From: Mustelus asterias
Taxonomy: Eukaryota
Direction: 5' to 3'
Length of the DNA: 64,000 bases
NCBI RefSeq assembly: GCF_964213995.1
Contig: NC_135809.1
Span: 109,368,001-109,432,000 of the forward strand
Both the position numbers and the translations under genes were made by a program. The number at the start of each line of letters is the position of its first letter. The first letter of the stretch is position 1. Shown one piece after another: positions 4,002 through 64,000 of this stretch. The notes beneath the pieces are model-generated. The model was not told where the DNA came from and searched no databases. It saw only the letters and a program-made list of their open reading frames with translations.

Positions 4002-4331
4002 CTTCCACTGTGAGTGTACTTTCTTGTGAAATGCCATCAGGACGAGCTGACCGGTGAGTCACAAAACATCTGTACACATCTCCATCATCATCCAATGTTG
4101 GTACAATTGTTATTCTGCTGGAAACACTGAAGGTTCCATTATTATTGAGAATTGTGGCTGTGGTCCAGATATCTGTTAGGTTTTTTGGTTCCTTAGATCC
4201 TTTGTTTGGGATCTTTTGCCAGATGAGTCCATGCTGCTTCGGGTAAAATCCTGTAACATCACAATTCAAGGTTCCCTCAGATCCAATCAAAATGTTGATG
4301 TGTTCTTTGGATAAACTGACCACTGGTCGAG
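4002..4331 (-). CDS. NCR3LG1: Gene A IgC1 exon, B7-H6/NCR3LG1-like
   Basis: tttaatgcag| acceptor, |gtatgt donor, phase 1/1; CDVTGFYP...W...NNNGTFSVSS...DGDVYRCFVTH C1-set motifs. Confidence 0.88.
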
Positions 4332-5604: not shown

Positions 5605-7811
5605 TCAATTCTGCCAAGCTTAAACAAAGGAGACTACAAAGGGATGAGGGAGGAGTTGGCTAAGGTAGACTGGGAGCAAAAACTTTATGGTGGGACAATT
5701 GAGGAATAGTGGAGGACTTTCAAAGCGATCTTTCACAGTGCTCAGCAAACTTATATACCAGTGATAAGGAAAGACTGTAGAAAAAGAGATGATCAGCCAT
5801 GGATATCTAAGGAAATAAAGGAGGGTATCAAATTTGAAAGAAAATGCATACAAAGTGGCAAAGATTAGTGGCAACCTAGAGGATTGGGAAATCTTTAAAG
5901 GTCAACAGAAAGTCATGAAGAAAGCTATAAAGAAAAGGAAGATGGATTATGAGAGTAAACTAGCTCAGAATATAAAAACAGCAAAGGTTTCTACAAATAT
6001 ATAAAACAAAAAAGAGTGGCGGAAGTAAACATTGGTCCTTTAGAGGATGAGAAGGGGGATGTAATAACTGGAAATGAGAAAATGGCTGAGGTATTGAACA
6101 GGTATTTTGTGTCGGTCTTCACAGTGGAAGACACAAATAACATGCCAAAAATTGATGACAGGAAGGCTATGGCAGGTGAGGACCTAGAAACTATTATCAC
6201 GAAAGAGGAAGTGTTGGGCAAATTAAAGGGGCTAAATGTAGACAAGTCTTCTGGTCCTGATGGAATGCATCACAGGGTACTTAAAGAGATGGCGGGAGAA
6301 ATAGCAAATGCACCAGTGGTAATTTACCAAAATTCGCTGGACTCTGGGGTGGTTCCCATAGATTGGAAAACAGCAAATGTGACGCCACTGTTTTTAAAAA
6401 AAGAGGTAGACAAAAGGCAGGTAACTATACGCCAGTTAGTTTAACTTCTGTAGTAGGGAAAATGCTTGAATCTATCCAGGAAGAAATAGCGAGACATCTG
6501 GATATAAATTGTCCCATTGGTAAGACGCAGCATTGGTTCATGAAGGGAAGGTCACGTTTGACTAATTTGGTGGAATTCTTTAAGAACATTACATGTGCAG
6601 TGGATAATGGGGAACCTGTGGGTGTGTTGTATCTAGATTTTCAGAAGGCATTTGACGAGGTGCCAGACCAAAGACTGCTACATAAGATAAAGGTGCACGG
6701 TGTTACGGGTAATGCATGGATAAAGGATTGGTTAACTAACAAAAAGCAAAGAGTGGGGGTAAATGGATGTTTTTCTGGTTGGCGATCAGTGACTAGTGGT
6801 GTGCCTCAGGGATCAGTGTTGGGATTGCAATTGTTTACGATTTACATAGATGATTTGGAGTTGGGGACCAAGTGTAGTGTGTCAAAATTCGCAGATGACA
6901 CTAAGATGGGTGGCAGAGCAAAGTGTGCAGAGGACGCTGAAAGTCTGCAAAAGAATATAGATAATCTAAGTGAGTGGGCGAGGGTCTGGCAGATGGAGTA
7001 CAATGTTAGTAAATGTGAGGTCATCCATTTTGGTAGGAATAACAGCAAAATGGACTATTATTTGAATGGTAAAAAATTGCAGCATGCTGCTGTGCAGAGG
7101 GACCTGGGTGTCCTTGTGCAAGACTTAAGGAGTTGGTTTGCAGGTGCAGCAGGTAATTAAGAAGGCAAATGGAATTTTGTCCTTTATTGCTTGAGGGATG
7201 GAGTTTAAAAACAGCAAGATTATGTTGCAGCTCTATAAGGTGTTTCTGAGGCCACACCTGGAGTACTGTGTACAGTTTTGGTCTCCTTACTTGAGAAAGG
7301 ATATACTGGCACTGGAGGTGCAGAGGAGATTCACTGAGTTGATTCTGGAGTTGAGGGGGTTGGCTTATGAGGAGAGACTGAGTAGACTGGGGCTATACTC
7401 ATTGGAATTCAGAAGAATGAGGGGAGATCTTATAGAAACATAAAAGATTATGAAGGGAATAGATAAGATAGAAGCAGGGAAGTTGTTTCCATTGGCAGGT
7501 GAAACTAGAACTAGGGGGCATGGCCTCAAAATAAGGGGAAGCAGATTTAGGACTGAGTTGAGAAGGAATCTCTTCACACAAAGGGTTGTGAATCTGTGGA
7601 ATTCTCTGCCCAGTGAAGCAGTTGAGGCTACCTCATTGAACGTTTTTAAGGCAAGGATAGATAAATTTTTGAACAGTAAAGGAATTAAGGGTTACGGTGA
7701 GCGGGTGGGTAAGTGGAGCTGAGTCCACAAAAAGATCAGCCATTATCTTATTGAATGGCGGAGCAGGCACGAGGGGCCAGATGGCCTACTCCTGTTCCTA
7801 GTTCTTATGTC
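5605..7811 (+). mobile_element. CR1 LINE, 5'-truncated and frameshifted, nested in an older minus-strand CR1
   Basis: RT motifs YLDFQKAFD, GVPQGSVLG, KFADDTK, PHLEYCVQFWSP; typical 3' UTR ending cctagttcttatgt. Confidence 0.92.
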
Positions 7812-14079: not shown

Positions 14080-14418
14080 CTGAGACTTCCAATCCCGATT
14101 TCTTTTCTGTCTTTTCAGGCGTGACAAACACAATACAAGTGTACTGCCCTTCTTCAGTAAGCTGTATGTCCGGAAGATGAAGTGAAGCATCTCCTTTCTG
14201 TAAGTTGGCTCTTGACATTTTTGCTCCATTTCTTTTTGGAAAAGCACTTCCTCCATTAAAGACATAGATATCCTGACCGTTGGGCCCAGTCCACTTGACA
14301 GCTACATTGTTTAGGTTGAAGCCTGCTGCATCATAGCCAGTAAACTTACATTCCAGGGAAATATCTTCATTCACTAAGACACTCTTTGGGTTTGCAAATA
14401 TTGTCACTTCCAAAGTTT
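14080..14418 (-). CDS. NCR3LG1: Gene A IgV exon, B7-H6/NCR3LG1-like
   Basis: tttatttag| acceptor, |gtaaga donor, phase 1/1; LEC...W...KGDASLHLPDIQLTEEGQYTCIVFVTPEK closely resembles the human B7-H6 V domain ([28 protein letters not shown], recalled). Confidence 0.9.
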
Positions 14419-22969: not shown

Positions 22970-24514
22970 GTACTAGTACATAAAAGAAGATAGGAAGAGA
23001 TTTTCAATATATAAAAGGTAAGAGAGAAACAAAAATAGACATTGGACCACTGAAAAATGAGGCTAGAGAAGTAACAATAGGAAACAAAGAAATGGCAGAG
23101 GAACTGAATAGTTACTTTGCATCAGTCTTCATGGTGGAAGACACCAGTGGGATGCAACAGCTCCAGAAGAATCAGGGGGCCAGGTGAGTATAGTGGCCAT
23201 CACCAAGGAGAAGGTTCTGGGGAAACTGAAAGGTCTGAAGATGGATAAATGACCTGGACCGGATGGAATACACTCCAGTGTTCTAACAGGAATAACTGAG
23301 GACATTGTGGAGGCATTGGTGGTGATCTTTCAGGAATCACTGGAAACAGGGAGGATCCCAGAGGACTGGAAAGTAAATAATGTAACACCGCTGTTTGAGA
23401 AGAGAGGAAGGCAGTAGATGGGAAATTATAGGCTGGTTAGCCTGACTTTGGTTATTGGCAAGATTTTAGAGTCCATTATTAAAGATGAGATCGCAGAGTA
23501 CTTGGAAGTGCATGATAAAATAGGACTGAGTCAGCACGGCTTCGTCAAAGGGAGGTCATGTTTGATAAATCTGTTGGAGTTCTTTGAGGAGGTAACAAGG
23601 AAGTTAGATAAAGGAGAACCAGTGGACGTGATTTATTTAGATTTCCAGAAGGCCTTTGACAAGGTGCCGCATAGGAGACTGTTCAATAAGTTAAGAGCCC
23701 ATGGTGTTAAGGGTAAGATGCTGTCATGGATAGAGGATAGGCTAACTGGCAGAAGGCAGAGAGTGGGGATAAAGGGGTCTTTTTCAGGATGGCAGCCAGT
23801 GACTAGTGGTGTGCCTCAGGGGTCAGTGTTTCGACCACAACTTTTCACAATATACATTAACGATTTGGAAAACAGAACTGAAGGCACTGTTGCTAAGTTT
23901 GCAGATGATGCAAAGATATGTAGAGGGACAGGTAGTATTGAGGAAGCAGGGGGGCTACAGACATACTTGAACAGGCTAGGAGAGTGGTCAAAAAAATGGC
24001 AGATGGAAAAGTGGAAGGTAATGTACTTTGGAAGGAGGAATGGAGACAGACTATTTTCTCAATGGGGAAATGCTTAAGAAATCAGAAGCACAAAGGGAGT
24101 GTTCTCCCTTTGGGAGTGGGAGTCCTTGTTCAAGATTCTCTTACGGTTAACATGCAGGTTCAGTCGGCAGTTAGGAAGGCAAATGCAATGTTGGCATTCA
24201 TGTCGGAGAGGGCTAGAATACAAAAGCAGTGATGTACTTCTGAGGCTGTATAAAGTTTTGGTCAGACTTCATTTGGAGTATTGTGAGCAGTGTTGGGCCC
24301 CGTATCTAAGGAAGGATGTGCTGGCCTTGGAAAGGGTCCAGAAGAGGTTCACAAGAATGATCCCTGGAATGAAGAGCTTGTCATATGAGGAACAGTGAAA
24401 ACTCTGGGTTTGTACTTATTGGAGTTTAGAGGATCTTATTGAAACGTACAGGATACTGCGAGGACTGAGTAGAGTGGACGTGGAGAGGATATTTCCACTC
24501 GTAGGAAAAACTAG
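22970..24514 (+). mobile_element. CR1 LINE ORF2 fragment
   Basis: 219-aa ORF with YLDFQKAFDKVPH, GVPQGSV, KFADDAK. Confidence 0.92.
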
Positions 24515-40929: not shown

Positions 40930-41380
40930 TTTGCTCATTCCGCCCACCCGGAATTGGACAAGTGACAGCAGCGCCCTCCAGTGGCAGAGGCGGCCGGCAT
41001 CCGGGGAAAGTGAAACTTGGGCCTCGCTGAGACGCTTAATGCTTCTGGAACCGAGCGACCGAGAGAGTGAGGGGCAATGGGCCGGACCGGGAACTTGTGG
41101 CCGTTTGTGGTGGCGCTGGTGACTCTGGCACAGCTTTCAGGTGAAGGACGAGACGGGCGGCGGAGGCGGGGAACGGGCGGGAGCGCACATTCCGGCGAAT
41201 TCAGGCCGGGCCTGGCGCGGGGCGATCAGGAACCGCAGCCCGCCCAGGGTGGGGTTTGTACCCGGGCCTCTTGCTGATGATTCCCCGAGGCTGCAGGTTG
41301 AGGACAGCGGCCGACGAGGTTAAAGTGAAAGCCACAAACGTTGAGCTCACCCTGATCGGGGGCCATTCGGCCCATCGTGA
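40930..41380 (+). promoter_or_regulatory. CpG-rich promoter/first-exon region of gene B with GC box, CTCF-like site and ISRE
   Basis: High CpG density in unique sequence; CCGCCC 40940-40945; CAGCGCCCTCCAGTGGC 40969-40985; GAAAGTGAAACT 41006-41017; AAAGTGAAAG 41322-41331. Confidence 0.7.
41077..41140 (+). CDS. NCR3LG1: Gene B leader (signal peptide) exon
   Basis: gcaATGG Kozak context; MGRTGNLWPFVVALVTLAQLS; CAG|GTGAAG phase-1 donor, in frame with the IgV exon (...S-ESKLEL). Confidence 0.78.
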
Positions 41381-42186
41381 CTGGTACAGCCCCTCCAGTT
41401 AGTCCCACTCTACCCATTTAGCCCCTTTTCCCAACAGAGTTCTACTTCCCCCCCCCCCCTCCCCAATTCAACTATTTAGCCAGTTTCCTTTGGACAGTTA
41501 TTATTGGGTCAACTTTAATGTCGTTTGCAGTTTCAAAGTAAGAGGATTCCCAGAGTTTTTTCCCTTTCCAAAAGGGTTGTAAATTTGACCTCCCCACAAA
41601 GCAGTGGAGGTCACTGAATGTAAGATAGACTTTTGATCTATAAGGGTGTTAAAAGGTTATCGGGTGGGTGGTCACCCATTGAGAGGCAACCGTACTGAGA
41701 TATGTTGGATTTTTCCCCATGGAAATCCTGTATGTCTCAGTAAGGTTGCCTCTCTGTCAAAACTACAATGAGTATAGCGCCGACCATTAGAAAATCCTCG
41801 GTATCAACCGAGTGAACCTTCTCTGTATTGCCTCAAATTCCAGTATTTATTTCCTTAGATAAGGGTACTAAAACTGTTCACAGTTTTCCAGGTGTGGCCT
41901 AACTAGTGTCTTGTATAGTGCCTTGCAAGTCTTCCTATTTTTATACTCTGCTCCTTTTGAAATAAAGGCCAACAGTCCACATGCTTTCCCGATGACCTGT
42001 TGAACTTGCGTACTAGCTTTTTGTGATTTATGCATGAGGACCCCCTCTAGCTGGAGCTTTCTGTCGTCTTTTTCCATTTAAATAATATTCAGCTCCTTTA
42101 ATCTTCTACCAAAAGTACGTAACTTCATATTTTCCTACATTATATTCTATCTGCCAAGTGTTTTGCCCACTCACTTAACCTATCTA

Positions 42187-43967
42187 AACACATAAAGGGC
42201 AAAACAGTAACAAGGGAGAGAGTAGGGCCACTTAAGGATCAACAAGGTCATCTATGTACGGATCCACAAGAGATGGGTGAGATCCTAAATGAATATTTCT
42301 CATCAGTATTTACTGTTGAGAAAAGCATGGATGTTAGGGAACTTGGGGAAATAAATAGTGATGTCTTGAGGAGTGTACATATTACAGAGAAGGAGGTGCT
42401 GGAAGTCTTAAAGCGCATCAAGGTAGATAAATCCCCGGGACCTGATGAAATATATCCCAGGACGTTGTGGGAGGCTAGGGAGGAAATTGCGGGTCCCCTA
42501 GCCGAGATATTTGAATCATCGATGGTCACGGGTGAGGTGCCTGAAGATTGGAGAGTGACAAATGTTGTGCCTTTGTTTAAAAAGAACTGCAGGGAAAAGC
42601 CTGGGAACTACAGGCCAGTGAGCCTCACATCTGTGGTGGGTAAATTGTTGGGAGGTATTTTGAGAGACAGAATCCACAGGCAAGGACTGATTAGGGACAG
42701 TCAGCGTGACTTTATGAGTGGAAAATCATGTCTCACAAATTTAATTGAGTTTTTTGAAGGGGTAACCAAGAAGGTAGATGAGGGCAGTGCAGTTGATGTT
42801 GTCTGCATGGATTTTAGCAAGGCCTTTGACAAGGTATCGCAAGGTAGGTTGTTGCATAAAGTTAAATCTCATGGGATCCAGGGTGAGGTATCTAAATGGA
42901 TACAAAATTGGCTTCTTGACAGAAGCCAGAGGGTGGTTGTAGAGAGTTGTTTTTCAAACTGGAGGCCTGTGACCAGCGGTGTGCCTCAGGGATCAGTGCT
43001 GGGCCCACTGTTATTTGTCATTTATATTAATGATTTGGATGAGAATATAGGAGGCATGGTTAGTAAGTTTGCAGATGACACCAAGATTGGTGGCATAGTG
43101 GACAGTGAAGAAAGTTATCTCCAATTGCAACGGGATCTTGATCAGTTGGACCAGTGGGCTGACGATTGGCAGATGGAGTTTAATTTGGACAAATGCAAGG
43201 TGATGCATTTTGGTAGATTGAACCAGGGCAGGATTTACTGAGGTAATGGTGAGAGTTACAGAACAAAGAGATCTCTGGGTACATGTTCATAGCTCCTTGA
43301 AAGTGGAGTCACAGGTGGACAGAGTGGTGAAGAAGGCATTCGGCATGTTTGGTTTCATCGGTCAGAACATTGAATACAGGAGTTGGGACGTCTTGTTGAA
43401 GTTGTACAAGACATTGGTAAGGCCACACTTGGAATACTGTGTGCAATTTTGGTCACCCTATTATAGAAAAGATATTATTAAACTAGAAAGAGTGCAGAAA
43501 AGATTTACTAGGATGCTACCAGGACTTGATGGATTGAGTTATAAGGAGAGGCTGAATAGACTGTGATTTTTTTCTCTGGAGCGTAGGATGCTGAGGGGTG
43601 ACCTTATAGAGGTCTATAAAATAATGAGGGGCATAGACAAGGTAGATAGTCAATATCTTTTCCCAAAGGTGGGGGAGTCTAAAACTAGAGGGCATAGATT
43701 TATGGTGAGAGGGGCGAGATACAAAAGTGTCCAGAGGGGCAATTTTTTCACACACAGGGTGGTGAGTGTCTGAGGTAGTAGTAGAGGTGGGTATAATTTT
43801 ATCTTTCAAAAAGCATTTAGATAGTTACATGGGTACGATGGGTATAGAGGGATATGGGCCAAATGCGGGCAATTGGGATTAGTTTAGGGGTTTTAAAAAA
43901 AAAAGGGCGGCATGGACAAGTTGGGCCGAAGGGCCTGTAAACATCTCTGAACCTCTATGACTCTATC
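42187..43967 (+). mobile_element. Relatively young CR1 LINE, 5'-truncated
   Basis: 322-aa uninterrupted RT ORF 42273-43241; 3' tail ctctatgactctat. Confidence 0.93.
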
Positions 43968-46900
43968 TATATTCCTTTGTAGACTTTTTTTGTCATCCTA
44001 ACCACTTGCCTTCCCATCTAGTTTTGTGTTATTGACAAATTTGGCAATAGTACCTTCACTTCCCTTGTCCAAATCATTGATATATATTGTAAATAATTAT
44101 GGCCTCACACTGATCCCTGTGACACTCCACCAGTTATAGGTTGCCATCCTGAAAATGTCCCTCTTATCCCAACTCTCTGTCTTCTGTCAGCCAACCCACT
44201 ACCTATGCTAATACACTGCCCCCAACGTCATGGGCTTTTACCTTATTAAACAGCCTCTTGTGCAGTATCTTATTGAATGTCTTTGGAAATTCAAGTATAT
44301 TACATCTACTGGTTACCCTTTATTTATCCTGCTTGATACCACCTCAAAGAATTCTAATAGATTTGTCAGGCATGATTTCCCCCTCATGAAGCCATGTTGA
44401 CTCTGCTTGATAATATTACGTATTCCTAAATGCTCTGCTATTACAACCTTTATGATGGACTCTAACATTTTGCCAATGGCAGATGTTAAGCTAACGAGCT
44501 ATAGTTAGCTGTTGTCATCGTCCTACCTTTTTGAATAAGGGTGCTTTCGTTGGCAGTTTTCAAATCCCCTGGGACTTTTCCAGAATTTAAAGATTCTAGT
44601 ACCAGTGCATCCACTATCTCTGTAGCTACTTCCTATGATATCCTAGGATGCAACCCATCAAGTCCAGGGGATTTATTGGCCTTTAGCCCCATTAGTTTCC
44701 TTAGTAATTATCTAGTGATCATTATTTTTTTTTATTTCCACCACCCCTTTTGCTCCTTGACATCTAGTATTTTTGGAATGCTATTAGTGTCTTCTACCGT
44801 GAAGACTGATGCAGAATATATCCTGGTTCCCCATTATTATTTCCCCAATCTAATTCTCTAAGGGGCCAATGATCACTTTGGTCTCTCTCTTCTTTTTAAT
44901 ATATTTAAAGAAGCTCTAACTGTCCATTTTTATATTACTTGTTAGTTTACCCTAATAGTTTATCTTCTCCCTTTTTGTTCTTTTTTTGATCATCTTTTGT
45001 TTGTTTTAAAACTTTCCCAATCCTCTGACTTACCGCTAATCTTTGCCATTTTGCATGCTTTTTCTTTCAGTTTAATGCTATTCTTAACTTTCTTGGTTAA
45101 CTACAGCTGATTTATATCCTTCGTAGAATCCTCCTTCCTTATATTTGTTGCGAGTCACGAACTATTTTCATAAATGTCTGCCATTGCTGATCAGTCTTTT
45201 CTGACAAACTCCTTTCCCAGTCCGCTCCAACTAACTCTGCCCTTATTCCTTTGTTAATTACCCTTATTTAAATTTAGCACAGTTGTTTCACGCCTTCAAA
45301 GCAAGGGGATTTGAATATAGGAGTAAGGATGTCTTGCTGCAGTTATACAGGGCCTTGGTGAGGCCATACCTTGCATATTGTGTGTAATTTTGGTCTCCTA
45401 ATCGGAGGAATTGTTGCTATTGAGGGAGTCCAGCAAAGGTTCACCAGACTGATTCCTGGAATGGCAGGACTGACATATGAAGAAAGACTGGATCGACAAG
45501 GCTTGTACTCACTGGAATTTAGAAGAATGAGAGGGGATCTCATTGAAACATATAAAATCCTGAGGGGACTGGATAGGCTAGATGTGGGAAGAATGTTCCT
45601 GATGTTGTGGAAGTCCAGAACTAGAGGTCACAGTCTAAAAATAAGGGGTAAGCCATTCAGGACGGAGATGAGGAAGAACTTCTTCACTCTGAGAGTTCTG
45701 AACCTGTGGAATTCTCTATCACAGAAATCAGGTGGGGCTAGTTCGTTAGATATGTTCAGGAGGGAACTGGATGTGGCCCTTGCGGCTAAGGGATCAAGGG
45801 GTATGGAGAGAAAGCGGGAATGAGATACTGAGAGTGCATGATCAGCCATGATCATATTGAATGGTGCTACAGGCTCAAAGGACTGAATGGCCTACTCCTG
45901 CATCTACTTTATATGTTTCTATGACCCAAGTTTCTCACATTCAAACTGAATGGTAAATTCTACCATGCTATGGTCACTGTTTCTTAGGAGTTCTTTTACT
46001 CTGATATTGTTTATTAAACCTGTCTCATTACACATCAGATCCAAAATACTCTGATCCCTGTTTGGATCCACAACATATTCTTCAAAACTGTCCCGAATAC
46101 ACTCTATGAATTCTTCCTCATGGCTACCTCTGCCAATTTGATTTTCCCAATCCCCATGAAGATTAAAGTCACTTATGATTAAAGTACTACCCTTTTTGCA
46201 TTATCTTCTGATTTTTCTCAGTCCTACATTATAGCTACTGTCTTCCCCTTGTTATTTCTTGCCTCCACCCACATGGATTCTACATCTTCCGATCCAAGAT
46301 CTGTTTTTTGCTATTGTACTTATTCCATCTCATACTAACAAAGCTTTCCTTCCTGTCTGTCCTCATGAAAAGTCACATACCCTGATTATTTAGTTCCCAG
46401 CTTTGATCTCCTTGTAACCACATATCTGTAATGGATATAAGATCATACCCATTAACCTCAATTTGTGCCATTCATTCATTATTTTGTGATGAATACTATA
46501 TGCATTTAACTAAAGAACCATTAATTTTGCTTTTTTTTACCACCCCACACCCCCCTTACCCTATTTGCTGCTGCTGTTATGTTTGTACGTCCTCTCCCTT
46601 CCTGTCCCACTCTAGGTATCATTACCTAAATAGCAACCTTGCGATGCTGCCATTTCCTTTTGCTTTGTAAGCCTCCCTTATCCAGAACGATTTCCCAGAC
46701 CCCCCACCCCACCGCGCGCACACATTTAGTTTAATGTCCTCTCTACCTTCCTAGTTATGTGGTTTGCAAGAACACTGGTCCCAGCACGGTTCAGATGCAG
46801 GCTGTTCCAATGGTACAGCCCTATTTTCCCCAGTACTGATGCCAGTGCCCCACGAACCGAAACCCACTCCTCCCAGAGGAGTATGGTCAAGCCTTGTGCC
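43968..46900 (-). mobile_element. Older minus-strand CR1 (also ~41700-42186), with nested plus-strand CR1 3' end at ~45291-45923
   Basis: Reverse-complement RT/APE/ORF1 motifs; nested piece encodes FRTEMRKNFFTLRVLNLWNSL. Confidence 0.8.
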
Positions 46901-47719: not shown

Positions 47720-48073
47720 AAAGCAAGTTGGAATTGAGAGTGAGTCAAAGTCCTGTGGAAGTAAATCATAATGAAAATGGTCTCCTGCTGTGTGAAATCG
47801 CTAAACTCACTGGGGCGACATTGAACTCGACGAACTTGGGCGTATTATGGACAGTCACTCGTGGCACTGAAACATCAACAGCCTTTTCCTACGCTTCTGG
47901 AAATATAAAGGAAGCATGGCCAGAAGCTGAGCTTTTGGAAAGCTCCATTCTAAATGGAAACATGTCACTGTTGCTAAGACATGTCACATTTAAACACACC
48001 GGACAGTATAAATGTGAAGTTGTTATTCCACCAAATGATAAGGCCTTTAAGATAGTGAAGCTTGAGATTTTAG
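47720..48073 (+). CDS. NCR3LG1: Gene B IgV exon, B7-H6/NCR3LG1-like
   Basis: aatctgcag| acceptor, |gtaagc donor, phase 1/1; LLCEI...LNSTNLGVLW...GNMSLLL...GQYKCEVVIPP. Confidence 0.88.
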
Positions 48074-49727: not shown

Positions 49728-50054
49728 CACGTCCTACAGTGACTGTGATTTCAGAAAATATCGTGGAAGTTGGCACAGGGGGAGAGATGGCCTTGGGTTG
49801 CCAGTTAAGTGATTATTATCCTTGTGACAGCAGTGCTGAATGGTTTCAGACAACCCCATCACAAGGAGAGCCAAAATTATTAAAGGACATTTGCATTGCC
49901 CCGCCAGTCAAAAACCCTGATGGAACATGTAACATAACCACTGAAGTTAGGTTGGAACCTCGTGTAGAAGACATTGGCAGCACTTTCGAATGCCGTGTCA
50001 CACATAAGACGTTTTCCGAGCCTCTCTCTGTAAAAGCTTCGGTGATTTTGAAAG
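49728..50054 (+). CDS. NCR3LG1: Gene B IgC1 exon (membrane-proximal ectodomain)
   Basis: ttttggcag| acceptor, |gtcagt donor, phase 1/1; GCQLSDYYP...W...KNPDGT...FECRVTH. Confidence 0.88.
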
Positions 50055-50669
50055 GTCAGTTGCAATGACAAATGCAAAGTATAACATTTTTTTTATTGAA
50101 AAACACTTCAGCGTTATCCAATGTACTGCAGTTTTTACTTCTTGGGGAAACAACTAAATCAGAAACTTTTAGGTGGATTTGTTTGATAACGACAGCTAAT
50201 GAATTTTGAAATTTCTTGTGTTTATTAAGATACATTTTTACAAAAATGTTAATATGTAACTCAATCAACTTCTTTCTATTGATGTGATCTAATTAGATTA
50301 CTTATATATTATGAATATTTTGTTACAGTTCTAAGCATTTGGGAGGTTTATCAAATTCATAAATATGTATTTTTTAAAAATAAGATTAGCGTTCCATCTA
50401 ATGAGTTGAACACTTTTTCCATCCAAGCATCTATTTCTGACCGTCAGATATGTCTTGATGACCGCATGATCTAGAGAAAGTTTAATTGATTTCAATTTTC
50501 CCCTTCATTACCTGAACAAATCTTTTTAGTGGAAAATGATCCTGTGACCATTGTTTCCGAGACTTGGCTCCAATCTTACCTAAGATTTTTTACATAAAGT
50601 TGCAAATTATATACAGCACTGAAAGAGGCCATTCAGCCAACTATTCCGTTGGTGTTTATAACCACACTG

Positions 50670-51975
50670 GTTGTAAACTGGAGTAATTCACACTGGTTTT
50701 TTCAGTGGGAGTTCACACTAGAATCTCCCACACTTTGTGCAATGCAGAGGCCACCAGCGTGAATATCATTAGATTTCAGGGCGCGGGGCCTATTCCCGCC
50801 TGAGTGGCTGAAATCAGCGTGCCTCTGCGCATGCGCAGTGGCTCCAAACTGTCAGCCTTCCTGTTGCGAGCCAGCTCAGTCATTGGCCAGCCCTGGGAAC
50901 CCACAGTGCTGCCCCCCCAACCCCCCCCACGGCCCGATCGTGGGCCCTCCGGCAATTCCCAGGCCAGCCTCGAACCCCTTTCCCGTCCTGGATGGCCCCG
51001 ATCTCCAACCCCCCACCCGCAGTGTCAATACCCCCCAGCCCGCCCGATCTCCAGCCCCCCCCCCCCCGCCAAAACAAATTCACCCCCACCTCCCCCCAGC
51101 AGTCCCGACCTGCCCCAGTCAGTCTTGATCGCTGGCCTCCCTCCGGCCCCTATCAATCCCCATGCAGAGTGGCAGCGGAACCCCCCACCAGGGCACACCC
51201 CCCTATAGGCCCTATCCCCTTGGCACTGCCCGATGTCTGGTGGACAGTGTCAAGGTTTCCCATGGGCACTTTGCCCCTTGGGCAGTGCCAGGGAATACAG
51301 GCTGGCATTGCCAGGGTGCCCATACCCAGGGGGCACCACCCCTCACCACCCGACCCCCTGGGGGGGCCCCAGTTGCCCCCCACTTCCCTCCTGCGGGGTT
51401 GGGCCGCCAGTTCCCCGAAAGTGGGGAGCTAGACTGAACCCTGCTGGAGTGAAATACTGGGGTGGTATAGTGATTAGCTGCCCCAGGGACCCGGGTTCGA
51501 TTCCCGGCTTGGGTCACTGTGTAGAGTTTGCATGTTCTCCCCGTGTCTGCATGGGTTTCCTCCGGGTGCTCCGGTTTCCTCCCACAGTCTGAAAGATATG
51601 CTAGTTGGGTGCATTTACCCGAGCAGATGCTGTAATATAGCGACGAGGAGAATTTCACAGTAACTTCATTGCAGTGTTAATGTAAGCCTTACTTGTGACT
51701 AATAAAAAAAACTTTAACTTTAAATACTTCTTGTGGGGTGGGAGATGCTAATGGGCCCTCTAATAGCATAAAAATGACATTAAAATAAGATGTAAAGTAT
51801 TTACCTGGTGTTCCTGCCGGTTTCCAGTGTGAATCAGATGGCGCCAGAAATCCAGCGCTGGGAGATGCGCACGCGGCGGGAATGCATGCGTGAATCCTAC
51901 ACATGTCTTGATGTGAGATTCTCCCACCACGCAGCGCTAGAAAATTAGCATGGCAGGGTGGGAGAATTGCCCCCA
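50670..51975. mobile_element. GC-rich non-autonomous Harbinger-like element with nested HE1 (~51460-51720)
   Basis: Ends gagaattgccccc; motifs shared with 29700-30493; HE1 body and tail. Confidence 0.55.
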
Positions 51976-52871
51976 GTGTCTCCATTTCTACCTTGTCCAA
52001 CTGATCTGTAATTTTGAAGACCTCTATCAGGTCACGTATAAGTCTTCCGGTTTCCAAAGATGATGGCCCCCAAGCTATTCAATATTTCCCCGATAATCTC
52101 TTAGTTCTGTACCATCCTTGTAAACCTTTTTTTCCCCACACTTTCTCCCATAATTGTATGTCTCTTTTACTAGTACATGACCAGAACTGTACACAGTACA
52201 CGGAATGCAACCTGACCAGGTTCCTATACAAGTTTAACAAATTCTGTACCTCTAGAAATAAATCCCAGAGTTTTCCTTACTTTTTAAATGCTTTTTGTTG
52301 CAATGCTGTTTTGAGCGATTTGTTTCCTGAGATCCCCTTGTACTTCTATTCCATTGTGTTTCTATGACTGTAAAGTGCGGATGACGTTTCTGTTTTTTCT
52401 TCGCAAGTGTACCTCATTTATTGAGGCTAAAGTTTATTTTTAACTACCTGGTCTGCAAATATTCCAATATCTTCTCTAATTATGTTGCAGTATTTTTCAG
52501 TGTTAGCTTTGCCCTCTCGATGTTTGGTATCAGTTGCAAGTTTTGATCTTAAGTTATTTGTTCCCAATCCCAAAACATGAATGTAAATTATGAATAACAG
52601 TGATAATAACAGTGGTCTCAGCACTCATCCTTGTGGAGCACTGCATTTATGTTACAAGTAACCAGTTTTCTAAGTAACACAACTGGGGTACAAACAATAC
52701 AAGATGTTTGGGTGTGAAAATAAATGCCAATTAGTTGTGAGCACTGGCTGACCCAGAGCTGTGCTAAGTATTTATCTACTATACTTTATCCTATTCTACA
52801 ATATTACACGGGGTGAGTAGTGGTACAATTGAAACCAGTTGTGTGAGAAATATGAAACTTTTCTTTTACAG

Positions 52872-52988
52872 AAGCAGAAATCCGTCTGTCAACATCATCA
52901 ATAGTTGGAAGCGTGATTGCAAGCATTATTATTTCTGTTGCCGTAATAGCACTCATAATTTTCCTCTTTATGCGGTTCAGATATAAAG
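52872..52988 (+). CDS. NCR3LG1: Gene B transmembrane exon
   Basis: cttttacag| acceptor, |gtaagg donor; 117 nt, phase 1/1; EAEIRLSTSS-IVGSVIASIIISVAVIALIIFLFM-RFRYK, a ~24-aa hydrophobic helix followed by a basic stop-transfer. Confidence 0.88.
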
Positions 52989-53589
52989 GTAAGGCTGCAT
53001 TTTGGGGGTTGTGTGCCACTTTGGACAGTTTAGGGAATAACCTTGAGAGTAAGATGACACCAAAGGAAATTTGGGTTATGGACTGGGGAGGGAAGCTGTG
53101 CGTTGAGAACTTTTACTGCTGGTTGGTTGCTGTTATTGCAACAAATTTGTGCATCTTCTGGTTAACCAATGGTATCTCAAATTTGCTAGGATTTTTTTTT
53201 GCTTCCGCTTGTGGCAGTTCCAGTCAAATTTGTTTGCAGGCACATTGGCTTTGAAATCACTCCGTAGGCTTGGAATACAGATACATAATTGTTTCGCTAT
53301 TGCTACAAAGAAAAGAGAAACTGTTGAAGGTTTTTGTCTTGCACTCATCAAGATAAAATCTCAAGAATGCCAAATTTCAAAGGGAACTATAATTTATCAT
53401 GAAGAAAGAGTGCCGATTGATTGGCAGGTGAATGTTGATTGTTGGATGTGTCGCCATGGAGAATGCACCGATTAACAGTTTGCAAGTTTTCAGTTAAATT
53501 GAAACTAGCCAAGTTGATTCTGCTCACGGCGTTTCCATGAGAATACCCCAGAGAAATGTTGCACCCCTCACCCCCAAGCTTTTCTTTTG

Positions 53590-55720
53590 TTGAAAAAAGT
53601 GCAATGCCTGGACATGTTATTTTTGTTTACAGAGGACATGACCCTCTGTGATTGTGTGAATAGCTGTAGTTTCTGGTAAGCATAAGTGAGCCCCATTGTA
53701 AACTCCACCCCCCCCCCCCCCCAACAGATAACCTTGAAATGGTTGTTATGAATGGTTGAAATAGCACAGTTTGGATTGTTAAATAAGTGCTGCCCGATTC
53801 CGGAATTATATTTAATGTTCGACCCTGTTTTCTGAGTCCTGCAAGCACTGGCTGGTTGAGTGCAGTCCATACTCTGCCTTTTGAGAACAGCCAAAGGTAT
53901 GTGCTGTTTGATATGATCCACCAGATATTGGAATGTAAGGCCTGTATTCCTGGCATTTCACTGGCACAGGAACTCAAGTCACATTACTCATTGATCTTTT
54001 TGGCTTGACGGCAGCATCCTGTTAGTGGTGAATACCACTCGTTGCTACTGCATGGTAGTGGCTTGAAACAGCTAGCTTCACCTGTTGTTCAAATTCTTGC
54101 GATACCTTGTCCTTCCAGGGCACCAGAATTGTTAACCCTGGGGCCTATTCATGAGTTTGTCAGCAAGCAATGACGTGATCAGGGTAGCCAATTTCCTGCA
54201 GGAAAGCTTTGATGTGGCCTTTCTTGGCATCAAGATTTCTTGAGCACATGGCTTGGGACTTATTACTGACGTTGCCAAGAAGACAAATCTTGTAGGGTCC
54301 AGAGCTGTTGTGTATCAACGTGGATATTCACCAGAGAAAGTACGCTTGTAGAAGTAGTAGTAAAAGTAGGTAGTAGACAACTCTTGGCAGATTTCTCAAT
54401 TAGAAAATCGAGGAAAGGAAGCTCATTAGAATGTTCTACTTTAAAGGTGTATTTGAGTGTGGCATGGAGCCCATTAAGATGTTTAAGGAAATTCTTACCT
54501 GCAGCTTCAAATATAGCAAATGTATCATCTACTTCTCAGAAGTATGAATGTGGTAGATAGTTAGGGGTCATTCTCTTAAAGAAGCATTTCTCCTGGAAAC
54601 CAACAAAAATGTTAGCAAGAGCTGGGCCTGGAAGTGATAAAGTTGAACTCAGATGCACAAGTGGCTGGGTTTATAAGTTCAATGAATGTTGTGGGGGTTT
54701 TATTGAATTCATAAATATGTATTTTTAAGTTTGAGATACATTCCATCTAATAAGTTGAATATCTCTGACCTTCAGATATGTCTTGATGACTGCACGATTC
54801 TTGAGAAATTTTTCTATTTTTCGCTTCATTGCATGGACAAATCTTTTTAGTGAAAAATGATCCTGTGACCGTTGTTCCCCATGGTTCACTGCATCCACGT
54901 TTATATAGGTTGCCCAAGATGCACAAAAATCTTGTGCATTTTCTAAAAATTCATTTATAGGAAGTGAGCTTTGGCTAACCCAGTGTTTATTTCCCATCTC
55001 TAATTGTCTTCAAAAAGGTGGTGATGAGTTGCCTTTTTGAACCGCTGCAGTCTCTGATGTAGGTACACCCACAGTGCTGTTAGGGAGAACATTCCAGGAT
55101 TTTGCCCCAGTTACAGTGAAAGAACAGTGATATTTCCAAGTCGGGGTGGGATGTGATTTAGAGGGGAACTTCCAGATGACAATGTTCCCATGTGGCAGCC
55201 ACTCTTGTCCTTATGGATGGTAGCAGTTGTGAGTTTGAAAAGTGCTGCCTAAGGAACCTTGGGTGTGTTCTGCAGTGCATCCTGTAGAAGGTACACACCA
55301 CTGCCACTGTTGGTGGTGGCAGGAATGAATGTTTGTGGAAGGGATCCCAATCATTGTCCTGGATGATGTCCAGCTTCTTCAGTGTTGTTGGAGCTGCACT
55401 TATCAGGCAAGTGGAGATAGTCCATCACACTCCTAACTTGTGTCTTGTAGATGCTGAATAGACTTTAGGGAGTCAGGAGGTGAGTTACTTGCCACAGGAT
55501 TCCTAGCTTCTGACCTGCCCTTGAAGTCACTGTATTTAAATGGCTACTCTAGTTTCTGGTCAATTGCAACCCCCAGAATGTTAGTAGGAGATTTAGAGCT
55601 TTATGCGTTATCTTGACTGGTTCAGCACAACATGAATTGGCCAAATGGTTAAGTGAGTTGCTGCGACCAATCCTGAGTGAATTTTCTGCATACGCGATAA
55701 ATACTTCACCTTCATAAAGA
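53590..55720. mobile_element. Penelope-like retroelement fragments in both orientations, with a LINE 3' end inserted at ~54948-55590
   Basis: Minus: SGIGQHLFNNPNC and GPALANIFVGF; plus: PHGSLHPRLYRLPKMHK...TGSAQHELAKWLSELLRP. Confidence 0.7.
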
Positions 55721-56035
55721 TTAACAAGACCTGATGAGTGCAAGATGAAAAGCCTTTACAACAATGCTCCTGGCCAGCGACCATCATTATTTTTGTTGTT
55801 TCCCATTTGTTCTTTAATGATCTATTATATTTTGAAATTTCCTCTGTGCTCCATTACCAGAGATCTGATCTGCCTGTCTAGCACCCTTTCCTGATGCTCT
55901 TTAAATTTATCCTCCACATCTTGAAGCTTCTGAAATAAAAGCAAAATACTGTGGATGCTGGAAATCTGAAATAAAATGCTGGAAAAACCTTTCTGAATGA
56001 TCCAACTTGAAAATGCTTTATTTCTTTATTCCTAG

Positions 56036-56455
56036 TTGCACCAAACGTGTCACAAATTCAAAGACCTGTGCAAGTTGTACACAAAGAACTTGCAGAGTTT
56101 GCATGCCAAGTGTCTGGATATCGACCCAATGTTATTACTATCAGCTGGTATTTGCAGAGACGCAATGACAGTGAAAAGTTGATCGCTGAATGGCAAGAAG
56201 ACGACATATTCCTTTTCCCTTTCATCACTGACAGGAAACGAGAAAGGACTGGTGAAAGGAATGAAAATGATGTGGAATGGAAAGTCAAGGCAGTCAGTTT
56301 TCAGAAAAATGATGATGGAACATTCAGCATTTCCAGCGTTCTTGAGGTTTATCCTGACATCAATGTGGACAATAATGCACAAATCATATGTAAAGTGATG
56401 CATTCATCTGACAGTGAAGGCATCATTAGAAAGATTGACTTACAAATTAAGGGAG
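56036..56455 (+). CDS. Gene B post-TM IgC1 exon 1 (predicted cytoplasmic)
   Basis: ctttattcctag| acceptor, |gtaagc donor, phase 1/1; FACQVSGYRP...ISWY...KNDDGTFSISSVL...IICKVMH. Confidence 0.86.
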
Positions 56456-58747
56456 GTAAGCTTTTAATCAAAATCCACTATTCCGTTAGGTAGAACATCT
56501 GGGCACTTTCCAGCCTCCGCTGTTTTGTGATCATATTAAATGTTGCAAGCCCAAGACATGTATCCTAGATCTGCCACTTTTGAGTTTTCAAATTAATGAT
56601 TAATGATATTTGCAGCAACCTTTTATGGATGTCCACATGCTTCTTGAGTTGAATGTTGCCATGGTGTTTCAGTGAGTTACCTGAGAGTGGGCCTCTTGAC
56701 AAAGTTTGACCTCCTCATAGAGATGACAGTGTTAAAATTACATGTTGCTGTAAAATTATCCATCTAGAATTCTGTCCGAGTGTTTTTAAGTTATATGATT
56801 ACTAACTTAGGAAATAAAGCTGTGTGAAATTGAAAAGGTAAAATGGAGGGACAGCTGCACTGAAATGTTCAATATAGCATCAATAGACTAGAATATATCT
56901 GGAACCAAGGCTGTGAAAGATTGTGGAGGGAGTGGGGGAGAATTATAGCAATTCAGCAGAGAACAGAATGGGGCCTCAAGAAAAGTCTTTAGTCAACAGT
57001 TAACACAGACATGGTATAAAACAAGTCCCTTTATAGTTCAATGTTTACTCTTCTAACCCTAATGCCAAAACACAGTCCTATAGATTTTTTTCCATTAATA
57101 GCATTATGATTTTTTTAATTAATGACACAAATTAGGAAAGGAGTGTTCTACCTTTAATTATATATTTTTAAAAGGAAATAGTATAGACTTCAATATCATT
57201 TTGTAACCATTTTGCAGCTTTTCTGGCCCTTGCACCCTTTTCACCTGCTCATTTAAAAAATATTTTGATTTTCTATCACACTCTAACTCTAGTTTTGTCA
57301 TACACCTTTTCAGTTTATCTTTTACCTCCACTCCTTCCTTTGTTGCATTGTTTTGAGCCTCATGTAACATTTTGAAAAATCTTCACTGCTGATCTATTTA
57401 CCAACTTAAAATCATACCATCGTATTACCCAGTTATTCTTAATTCTCTGAGATGTTGACATATTTCATCTGCTGGCTTATCTTTACTATTTGGTGGCCTA
57501 CATCAGTACACAGAAGCATTTGTCTTCCTTTCCTTAACTGTATCCATATAGATTTTGTTCTAACCTCAGCCTTTAAAATATCCTTGCATTTTAACAGTGG
57601 GATAGAATGCTTAATGCACACTTGACCTCACTTTGTTCCTTCTGCATCTCTCCTGAAGAAGTTTAACCAGGAATATTAAGTTCCCAGTTTGTCCAAACCT
57701 TAAATTATTTTGATTATAGCTGCTATATCATATCCATAAGCTACCAGTTCATTCAGTTTGTTTTGACCACTTCGTCCATTCGTCTACATACCACTCAATC
57801 TTGAGTCCAATTTTCTCTTGGTTTATTGGCCTTTTTTCTTTTTCCTAGTTATAAGTTTTTGTTATCTTTTTATTCGTTTTGCTTCTCATTACCTCAAAGT
57901 CCCTTTCTCGTCTAACGTTTTATCATTGCATTTTCCCAACTAAGCCTTCTACTTCTACTCCAACAGCTTGTCCCCCTCTAATCTCAAGTTTATTTTTTTT
58001 ACCACTTCCTCAACATACTTGTTATATTCTTCCTGCTGATCTATTTACCCTCTTCACAAGGACGTTGGTGTCACTTTGGATGGGATGAAGGCTCCTTGGC
58101 TTCAATTTGCTCCCTTCTGTGGCTTTGGTGCTCAAGTTGGACACGCTGTCCGTTTTCAAACCTATTGGCTTTGGTTTTTAGCCATAAATAAAAAGCTATT
58201 TTATTGATAGACTAGGAAATAACTGGATTGTTGGGTGTTTTATATAAACGAATATGAGGTTATTTATCTGATTTTAATCTGCTCGAGGTGATTCTCAGCA
58301 AATAATGCAATTGAGTTATTGGAACTGCCCCTTTTTGCCTGCCTCACCCTTCTCTCCTTGTATTCCATCACACTTACAATCTCCTGTTTCTGTCACTGCC
58401 CTGGAGTCAGAGACGAGATTCTGACCAATTCTTTTCCCCATTAGCAAAGGAGTCTAGAATTTTGGAGCAATTTCGGGCTGGGAAAGCTGTTGAGGCTAGG
58501 TCGGTTTGAATATTTCAGAGTTGAGATTGATAGATTTTTGTTGGGCAGGATTATTGAAAGAAAGCATTGTTAAATAATGTCCTTTACAATCTCATGACAT
58601 GCCAAGGCTCTTTACAACCAATGAAGTACAATTGAACTATAGTCTCTGTAGTAGTTATGAGTTATGGAGTCAAGACAAGTGGATGGAGTATATTATGTGA
58701 AAAGTGAAGTTGTTCACTATGACAGAAAGAATGAAAAAACAGAGAGT

Positions 58748-60116: not shown

Positions 60117-60479
60117 TTCCTCCTAAGTTGGCGAACATAATTAAACCTCCAGTCGTGCACCATAACAATTCTGTGATGCTGACTTGTCCGATAAATTTCT
60201 TCAAGCCACATCCTCTGAAGATCATATGGTATAAAATAATAGATGGAGAGAAAATCCCTTTGCTGAAGCACAATAATGGAGCTGAAGAGAATTTCTATTT
60301 GAACAAATATACCCATTCAATGATTAAATTTGATTATCCTGACTACACTCACAGTGTCTGCAGCATGCTGCTCTTTACTGCAACAATCCAAGAAGATGAA
60401 AACAGTCAGTATTCCTGTGAAGTTGGACACATTGGTTTGAAAGATCCAGTGGAGAAGTTTGTTCAACTGAATGCAAAAG
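60117..60479 (+). CDS. Gene B post-TM IgC1 exon 2 (predicted cytoplasmic)
   Basis: ttttttttcag| acceptor, |gtaaca donor, phase 1/1; LTCPINFFKP...IIWYK...SQYSCEVGH. Confidence 0.86.
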
Positions 60480-63857: not shown

Positions 63858-64000
63858 CTTTTCCTACTCTTAATGCGATCATCAGTGAGCCAAGGAATCC
63901 TGTGATTGGAAAACAATTGACTTTGACCTGCAAAGTGCATTCATTTTACCCTAAAGATATTACTGTTCGATGGCTGAAAAATGAAGATGTTATTACGGAT
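63858..64000 (+). CDS. Gene B post-TM IgC1 exon 3, truncated by the window end (not in ORF track)
   Basis: gttttgcag| phase-1 acceptor; AFPTLNAIISEPRNPVIGKQLTLTCKVHSFYPKDITVRWLKNEDVITD, a C1-set CxVxxFYPxxIxVxW motif. Confidence 0.86.

Follow-up and report, generated by a model that had tools for sequence, protein, structure and literature searches.

The window analyzed here, a stretch of 64,000 nucleotides from Mustelus asterias (host genome, 3.68 Gb), contains a B7-H6-like gene on the plus strand that runs past the window's 3' end. The layout of the gene is leader-V-C1-TM-(C1)6, encoding 967 amino acids (aa), and both a second transmembrane (TM) segment and a tailpiece are absent. Its database protein, P0003, is also 967 aa long and includes the TM segment, and its N-terminus is identical to that encoded by the scanned leader (signal peptide) exon, the coding part of which lies at 41077 to 41140 and ends in a phase-1 donor. 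The ectodomain is encoded by a V-set Ig exon at 47720 to 48073 (354 nt, phase 1/1), with B7-H6 among its PDB matches, and by a membrane-proximal C1-set Ig exon at 49728 to 50054 (327 nt, 1/1). The TM exon at 52872 to 52988 was confirmed as 117 nt and phase 1/1 with canonical splice sites (cttttacag directly before it, AAG and then gtaagg at its donor), and its product is a hydrophobic helix followed by RFRYK, with basic residues on the 3' side. Tandem acceptors (CAG AAG CAG) are found at this exon, at 52869 to 52877, and Pristiophorus isoforms differ there by one residue.

The initial annotation counted three C1 domains after the TM segment. We found six, three further exons lying beyond the window, and the skipped product V-C1-C1-C1-C1 that it gave is incomplete. 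D1 (56036 to 56455; 420 nt, 1/1) carries both canonical cysteines and the sequons NVS and NDS, and D2 (60117 to 60479; 363 nt, 1/1) carries both cysteines and NNS. D3 begins at 63858 and fills the window to 64000, with 166 bases of its 309-nt exon past the 3' end, and also has both cysteines. In window-extended coordinates (locus L010, plus strand), D4 lies at 65435 to 65761 and has the first Cys only, D5 lies at 68333 to 68647 and has neither, and D6, the last coding exon, lies at 69729 to 70036, has the Cys pair, and ends in a TAG stop codon. In the predicted model all eight Ig domains, D4 and D5 included, are beta-sandwiches, and a homodimer prediction on D2 to D4 scored 0.01 and is given no weight here. 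A scan of the 40 kb downstream of D6 found no hydrophobic exon with a donor, and no TM segment or tailpiece follows D6, at which both the reading frame and the full-length orthologue records stop. An AATAAA at window-extended position 70140 was not called as a poly(A) site, as it sits in a repeat. A GT donor lies immediately 3' of the stop codon in the last coding exon. Some 6 kb beyond the window, L-H-V forms the C-terminus of the protein, and most orthologues end in hydrophobic-x-hydrophobic, which we take to resemble a class II PDZ-binding motif; it may instead be merely the end of the last beta-strand. Introns and intergenic sequence of the window contain frame fragments of reverse transcriptase, judged by eye to be of LINE type, at 5959 to 7157, 23418 to 24395, 42123 to 43238, and 45362 to 45820.

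The B7-H6-like gene and its cluster

The gene is the last one found in a cluster that spans C9:109.00-109.44 Mb and whose members have the layout V-C1-TM-(C1)n. Upstream of the cluster lie an RPS13 exon at C9:108.61 Mb and a PI3K exon (PI3Ka) at 108.71 Mb, both on the minus strand, and nucleobindin motifs at 108.85 to 108.87 Mb on the plus strand. The genes expected beside B7-H6/NCR3LG1 (RPS13, PIK3C2A, and NUCB2) are therefore represented, with PI3K and nucleobindin recognized at the family level, and their order presumably agrees with that of human 11p15.1. The sole Kir match on C9 is 11 Mb off.

Several paralogues of the cluster show signs of rearrangement. An inverted duplicate of an upstream paralogue lies on the minus strand, with a V exon at 14418 to 14080 and a C1 exon at 4331 to 4002, and continues into L020 to L022. 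It shares about 81 to 97% DNA identity with that paralogue in aligned blocks, has no D4 to D6, and has AT instead of GT at the D3 donor. Its original TM exon, approximately 10.4 to 11.4 kb before the window start, is broken by other sequence with stops, and a second TM exon copy is located in L020 at about 9562 to 9221 on the minus strand, 438 to 779 bases before the window start. This copy is 342 nt long and in frame, and a GCA/GGA expansion gives it a long Ala/Gly run before the helix. The inverted duplicate may be in decay. The leader exon region of the focal gene (40988 to 41158) has 80% DNA identity to that of an upstream paralogue in L026, some 65 kb ahead of the window, and the five other exons tested gave no blastn match to any paralogue. 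In Cetorhinus both leaders are identical as protein, which suggests gene conversion or exon sharing between paralogues. Two paralogues, at G000:C9:109.00-109.06 Mb (L051 to L057) and at 109.145 to 109.175 Mb (L039 to L042), have the D1 exon in two or three near-identical copies, without either canonical Cys and 16 to 26 kb apart; these are possibly alternative last exons.

The closest named orthologues of the focal gene are catshark proteins (78 to 79% identity). A profile of 22 orthologue records matched human B7-H6 with an E value of 1.5e-28 over profile positions 24 to 255, covering the whole V-C1 unit, and the modelled ectodomain superposed on B7-H6 with an rmsd of 2.0 Å over 224 columns and a TM-score of 0.89. 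Among solved proteins, B7-H6 is nearest to the ectodomain by both sequence and fold. With the V exon alone, CEACAM and CD276 scored slightly above B7-H6, and a fold search with the whole model matched mostly generic multi-Ig proteins. The gene combines IgV, IgC, and a single TM segment in a type I arrangement, and PMC6514059 describes B7-H6 itself as leader, IgV, IgC, and a single TM segment of type I. Homology and a common layout also connect it with records named B7H6 or NCR3LG1 (P0048, P0056, P0061, P0062, and P0063). A tree of 31 selected proteins, with no human member, placed the gene in a clade of chimaera, shark, ray, and caecilian proteins with support of 100/100, and this clade stands apart from the named nurse shark and amphibian records. 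The C-TM-C layout was present in 111 of 140 further representative proteins.

Symmetry and inclusion of the TM exon

Joining 50054 to 56036 by skipping of the TM exon preserves the frame and yields a Val junction codon, as had been proposed. The further statement that every Ig exon is phase 1/1 was correct for acceptors (34/34) but not for all donors (32/34 in the cluster), these counts being automatic best-site picks over the Ig exons found in the first 463 kb; of the two that deviate, one is the terminal exon and the other has a mutated donor. The five further TM exons found intact measured 99, 102, 114, 117, and 342 nt, all multiples of three. Taken as a sign of switching, the symmetry does not carry that meaning, because the flanking Ig exons are phase 1 and the full-length protein must stay in frame, making a 1/1 phase compulsory for any lone exon between phase-1 Ig exons. 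Symmetry allows skipping but is needed just as much without it: a symmetric TM exon that can be removed in frame is necessary for cassette skipping, yet here it is imposed by the exons on either side. The splice sites are ordinary, with 10 of 12 pyrimidines at the TM acceptor compared to a median of 9 and a donor equal to the consensus. By a crude matrix the acceptor scored low (3.6; median, 13.1; range, 0.7 to 19.7).

Contigs from 4 of 18 listed runs were compared over 52700 to 56600, where the sole trace that skipping could leave was a branch, or a loose end, at 56036. None of the listed runs is catalogued as RNA, but the contigs represent processed transcripts, since their joints are spliced. 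In three of the four runs (X11, X1, and X16), the TM exon was joined to D1 at 56036 by a GT..AG intron within a single contig. The X11 contig, 3117 nt long with 0 mismatches, extends 828 nt before the TM exon and 1750 nt after D1; the corresponding coding lengths are 745 and 1622 nt. From its length it appears to be a whole unbranched mRNA that includes the upstream C1, V, and leader exons, and had a skipped form been abundant, a branch in this contig would be expected. The D1 contig of the remaining run, X15, starts 11 letters before the joint at 56036 and was counted for neither inclusion nor skipping. Contigs of this kind lose rare variants.

Two side variants were detected, each as one contig in one run, and both contigs derive from a related organism. 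In an X15 contig of depth 6, the TM donor at 52988 is joined (GT-AG) to an alternative acceptor inside the TM-D1 intron, at 54776 to 54788 on the plus strand, and in the window sequence a stop follows three codons on. In an X16 contig of depth 9.6, the TM exon and D1 are spliced and the D1 donor is then read through (56455 to 56600), with a stop at about 56490. Neither variant was among the matches listed for X11 or X1.

Protein records gave a similar picture for the focal gene. The TM segment is present in each of the 26 orthologue records, which cover 17 species; the coelacanth record among them was assigned on identity alone. Variants of other kinds do appear in these sets, including the Pristiophorus shift by one residue at the TM acceptor and, in Narcine, a partial loss of D5. 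Across the family, 101 records of at least 300 aa (eight shorter ones were excluded) comprised 96 with the TM segment, one C-terminal fragment, and four without it. Exact loss of the TM exon was found in three RefSeq X2 isoforms, P0036, P0039, and P0063; the first two belong to one paralogue of this cluster in the lamnids Carcharodon and Cetorhinus, and the third is the Bombina NCR3LG1. A comparable direct join is seen in P0155 and P0235. Skipping is thus on record in the family, and the X2 isoforms, which would be secreted, are the best support for the idea put forward initially. In the tree the two lamnid records form sister branches, and together they may represent one event. Neither D1 nor D4 of that paralogue has a complete Cys pair, which fits poorly with a secreted product. 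Short TM exons are a frequent omission of gene models, as noted for UrIg2 in PMC12227049, and P0046 is an example here: it is a partial model that lacks other exons too, whereas P0040, from the same gene, has the TM segment, so P0046 was rejected as a TM-less form. Other candidates set aside were P0019, in which the TM segment lies near a truncated N-terminus; P0090, a C-terminal fragment; and the C. plagiosum pair of 972 and 932 aa, in which the 40-aa difference is at the N-terminus and not at the TM segment.

Cysteines, sequons, and charge around the membrane

The post-TM domains had been described as keeping their canonical cysteines. This holds for D1, D2, and D3 but not for D4, which lacks the second, or D5, which lacks both. 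Among 47 family representatives, which leave out the four TM-less records and are related and hence nonindependent, both cysteines were present in every pre-TM C1 domain (46 of 46) versus 129 of 284 post-TM domains, and the focal cluster gave 5 of 5 versus 10 of 23. The Cys pair varied strongly by position, occurring in 13/47 for D1, 46/47 for D2, 44/47 for D3, and 0/46 for D4. A single unpaired Cys is nevertheless retained in D4 in 46 of 46 proteins, and a conserved Cys therefore need not imply a disulfide.

Of the sequons named, NDS lies at aa 331 and NNS at aa 444, but they are no evidence for entry into the secretory pathway, for which the initial annotation had cited them: the post-TM part of this protein has 6 sequons against 5.6 expected from shuffled sequences. 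Over the same 47 representatives, subject to the same exclusions and relatedness, sequons occurred at 1.48 times the expected frequency before the TM segment and 0.95 times after it; within the focal cluster the densities were 1.68 and 0.41 per 100 aa, respectively. NDS is conserved in 6 of 17 species, NNS in D2 in 12 of 17, and NVT in D5 in 12 of 17, and control motifs such as D-x-S/T and K-x-S/T were conserved in equally many columns. In 46 of 47 family proteins, a count on the same related set, the part after the TM segment has a higher net charge than the part preceding it. Marks of the secretory pathway are lacking in the downstream domains, with D2 and D3 as exceptions. To judge from the sequences, the Cys and sequon patterns are likely to favor a cytoplasmic array. 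The Cys pairs that D2 and D3 retain almost without exception count against this reading and are incompletely explained by it.

Proposed function of the C1 array and comparison with known systems

With the exon layout, the inclusion of the TM exon in contigs, and the absence of a second anchor as the observed basis, we consider it probable that the product is a B7-H6-like protein of type I whose TM exon is for the most part constitutively included, with a likely cytoplasmic array, V-C1 as a putative ligand, and the C1 domains as a putative scaffold. The N-terminal leader and one membrane helix would give type I topology, with six C1 domains in the cytoplasm. The V-C1 ectodomain, judging from its likeness to B7-H6, would probably be displayed at the surface as the ligand of an NKp30-type receptor, and the C1 array would probably be a rigid scaffold inside the cell, holding this ligand in place and governing its surface display. 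TM skipping would be compatible with the frame and is likely to occur at a low level in some paralogues.

A different possibility is that TM skipping is regulated in the focal gene and yields a secreted V-C1-(C1)6 protein, acting as a soluble B7-H6-like decoy or multivalent ligand. Such a product would stay in frame and have a leader, D2 and D3 hold Cys pairs, and TM-exon loss is annotated in P0036, P0039, and P0063, with the similar join in P0155 and P0235. Soluble B7-H6 is also known in humans, where it arises by shedding according to PMC6514059. However, none of the 26 orthologue records skips the TM exon, the contigs that include it are unbranched in three of four runs, and there is no excess of sequons. 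Skipping would also bring the unpaired Cys of D4 and the pairless D5 into the endoplasmic reticulum, and the annotated losses are weakened by the perhaps single lamnid event and by the frequent omission of short TM exons from gene models. We regard the secreted form as improbable. The evidence on the focal gene thus tells against the splice switch proposed at the outset, although rare skipping may occur there, and isoforms of paralogues lend the general idea some support. Also doubtful is a broader version, in which a cassette exon in shark and amphibian B7-H6-like genes sets the side of a four- to eight-domain C1 array (a cytoplasmic scaffold when included, a secreted antibody-like NK-receptor ligand when skipped), the D2 and D3 Cys pairs are kept for the secreted form, and the focal gene switches under immune stimulation.

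Alternatively, the choice may fall after the TM exon, between the membrane form with its cytoplasmic array and a minor form with a short or truncated tail. The X15 join to 54776 leaves three residues after the TM exon and hence almost no tail, the X16 contig runs past the D1 donor into the intron, and the number of post-TM domains differs among paralogues and isoforms. Yet these variants, single contigs from single runs of a related organism, may reflect cryptic splicing or unspliced RNA. Tail-less records were not found, but the queries were the post-TM domains themselves and are blind to forms without them. Overall, such a choice seems quite unlikely. Least credible, and very improbable, is an outward position of the post-TM domains, either in the normal protein or in a long-stalk form anchored by a downstream TM segment after skipping. 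Cys pairs in D1, D2, D3, and D6 would suit it, but the search beyond the window for a downstream TM segment or secretory tail found none, and this refutes the suggested long-stalk isoform within the stretch scanned: the 40 kb past D6 held no hydrophobic exon with a donor, and the frame and the full-length orthologue records finish at D6. The N-terminal leader together with the positive-inside charge seen in 46 of 47 proteins argues against it as well.

What is firmly established is a B7-H6-like lineage, conserved from chimaera to caecilians, that carries an array of C1-set domains after its membrane helix. Such domains usually belong to the extracellular parts of antigen receptors and the major histocompatibility complex, and an intracellular array of them is odd for that reason. 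The C-TM-C layout has already been deposited as B7H6 and is widespread; hence, the layout itself is not new. If TM skipping were regulated, a single exon would decide on which side of the membrane a large Ig array lies and would provide a splice-based route to soluble B7-H6, as opposed to the shedding in humans. A 2012 account of B7 family evolution by Flajnik et al. reportedly describes amphibian B7H6 clusters, possibly with cytoplasmic Ig domains. In the literature searched, which left most subscription journals outside its coverage, no title or opening of an abstract described a cytoplasmic C1 array or TM skipping. B7H6 had no match in a text supplement of PMC3964593.

The shark gene is like human B7-H6 (NCR3LG1), the NKp30 ligand, in its leader-V-C-TM order, its fold, and its RPS13, PI3K, and nucleobindin neighbors. 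It differs in having six post-TM C1 domains, a multigene cluster, and only about 25% identity; the cytoplasmic part of human B7-H6 is not known to contain C1 domains. The V-C1-TM-(C1)n layout recurs in the nurse shark "B7H6" (P0048) and the amphibian NCR3LG1 proteins (P0056, P0061, P0062, and P0063), with seven domains after the TM segment; P0063 is the isoform lacking that segment. The focal gene is a paralogue, not an orthologue, of P0048. With the membrane/secreted switch of Ig heavy chains, to which it had been likened, the gene has in common phase-1 C1 exons and the possibility of bound and free forms from one gene. In Ig heavy chain genes, the TM exons follow the C exons on the 3' side, and the choice of poly(A) site decides between them and a tailpiece. 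In contrast, the shark TM exon is internal, no tailpiece is present, the frame ends at D6, and a free form requires cassette skipping, so the exon layouts do not match and the analogy fails. Soluble TM-less splice forms occur in proteins of the B7/CD28 family. The route would be the same, namely, cassette skipping of the TM exon, but the shark case would shift a folded Ig array of about 680 aa from the cytoplasm to the lumen.
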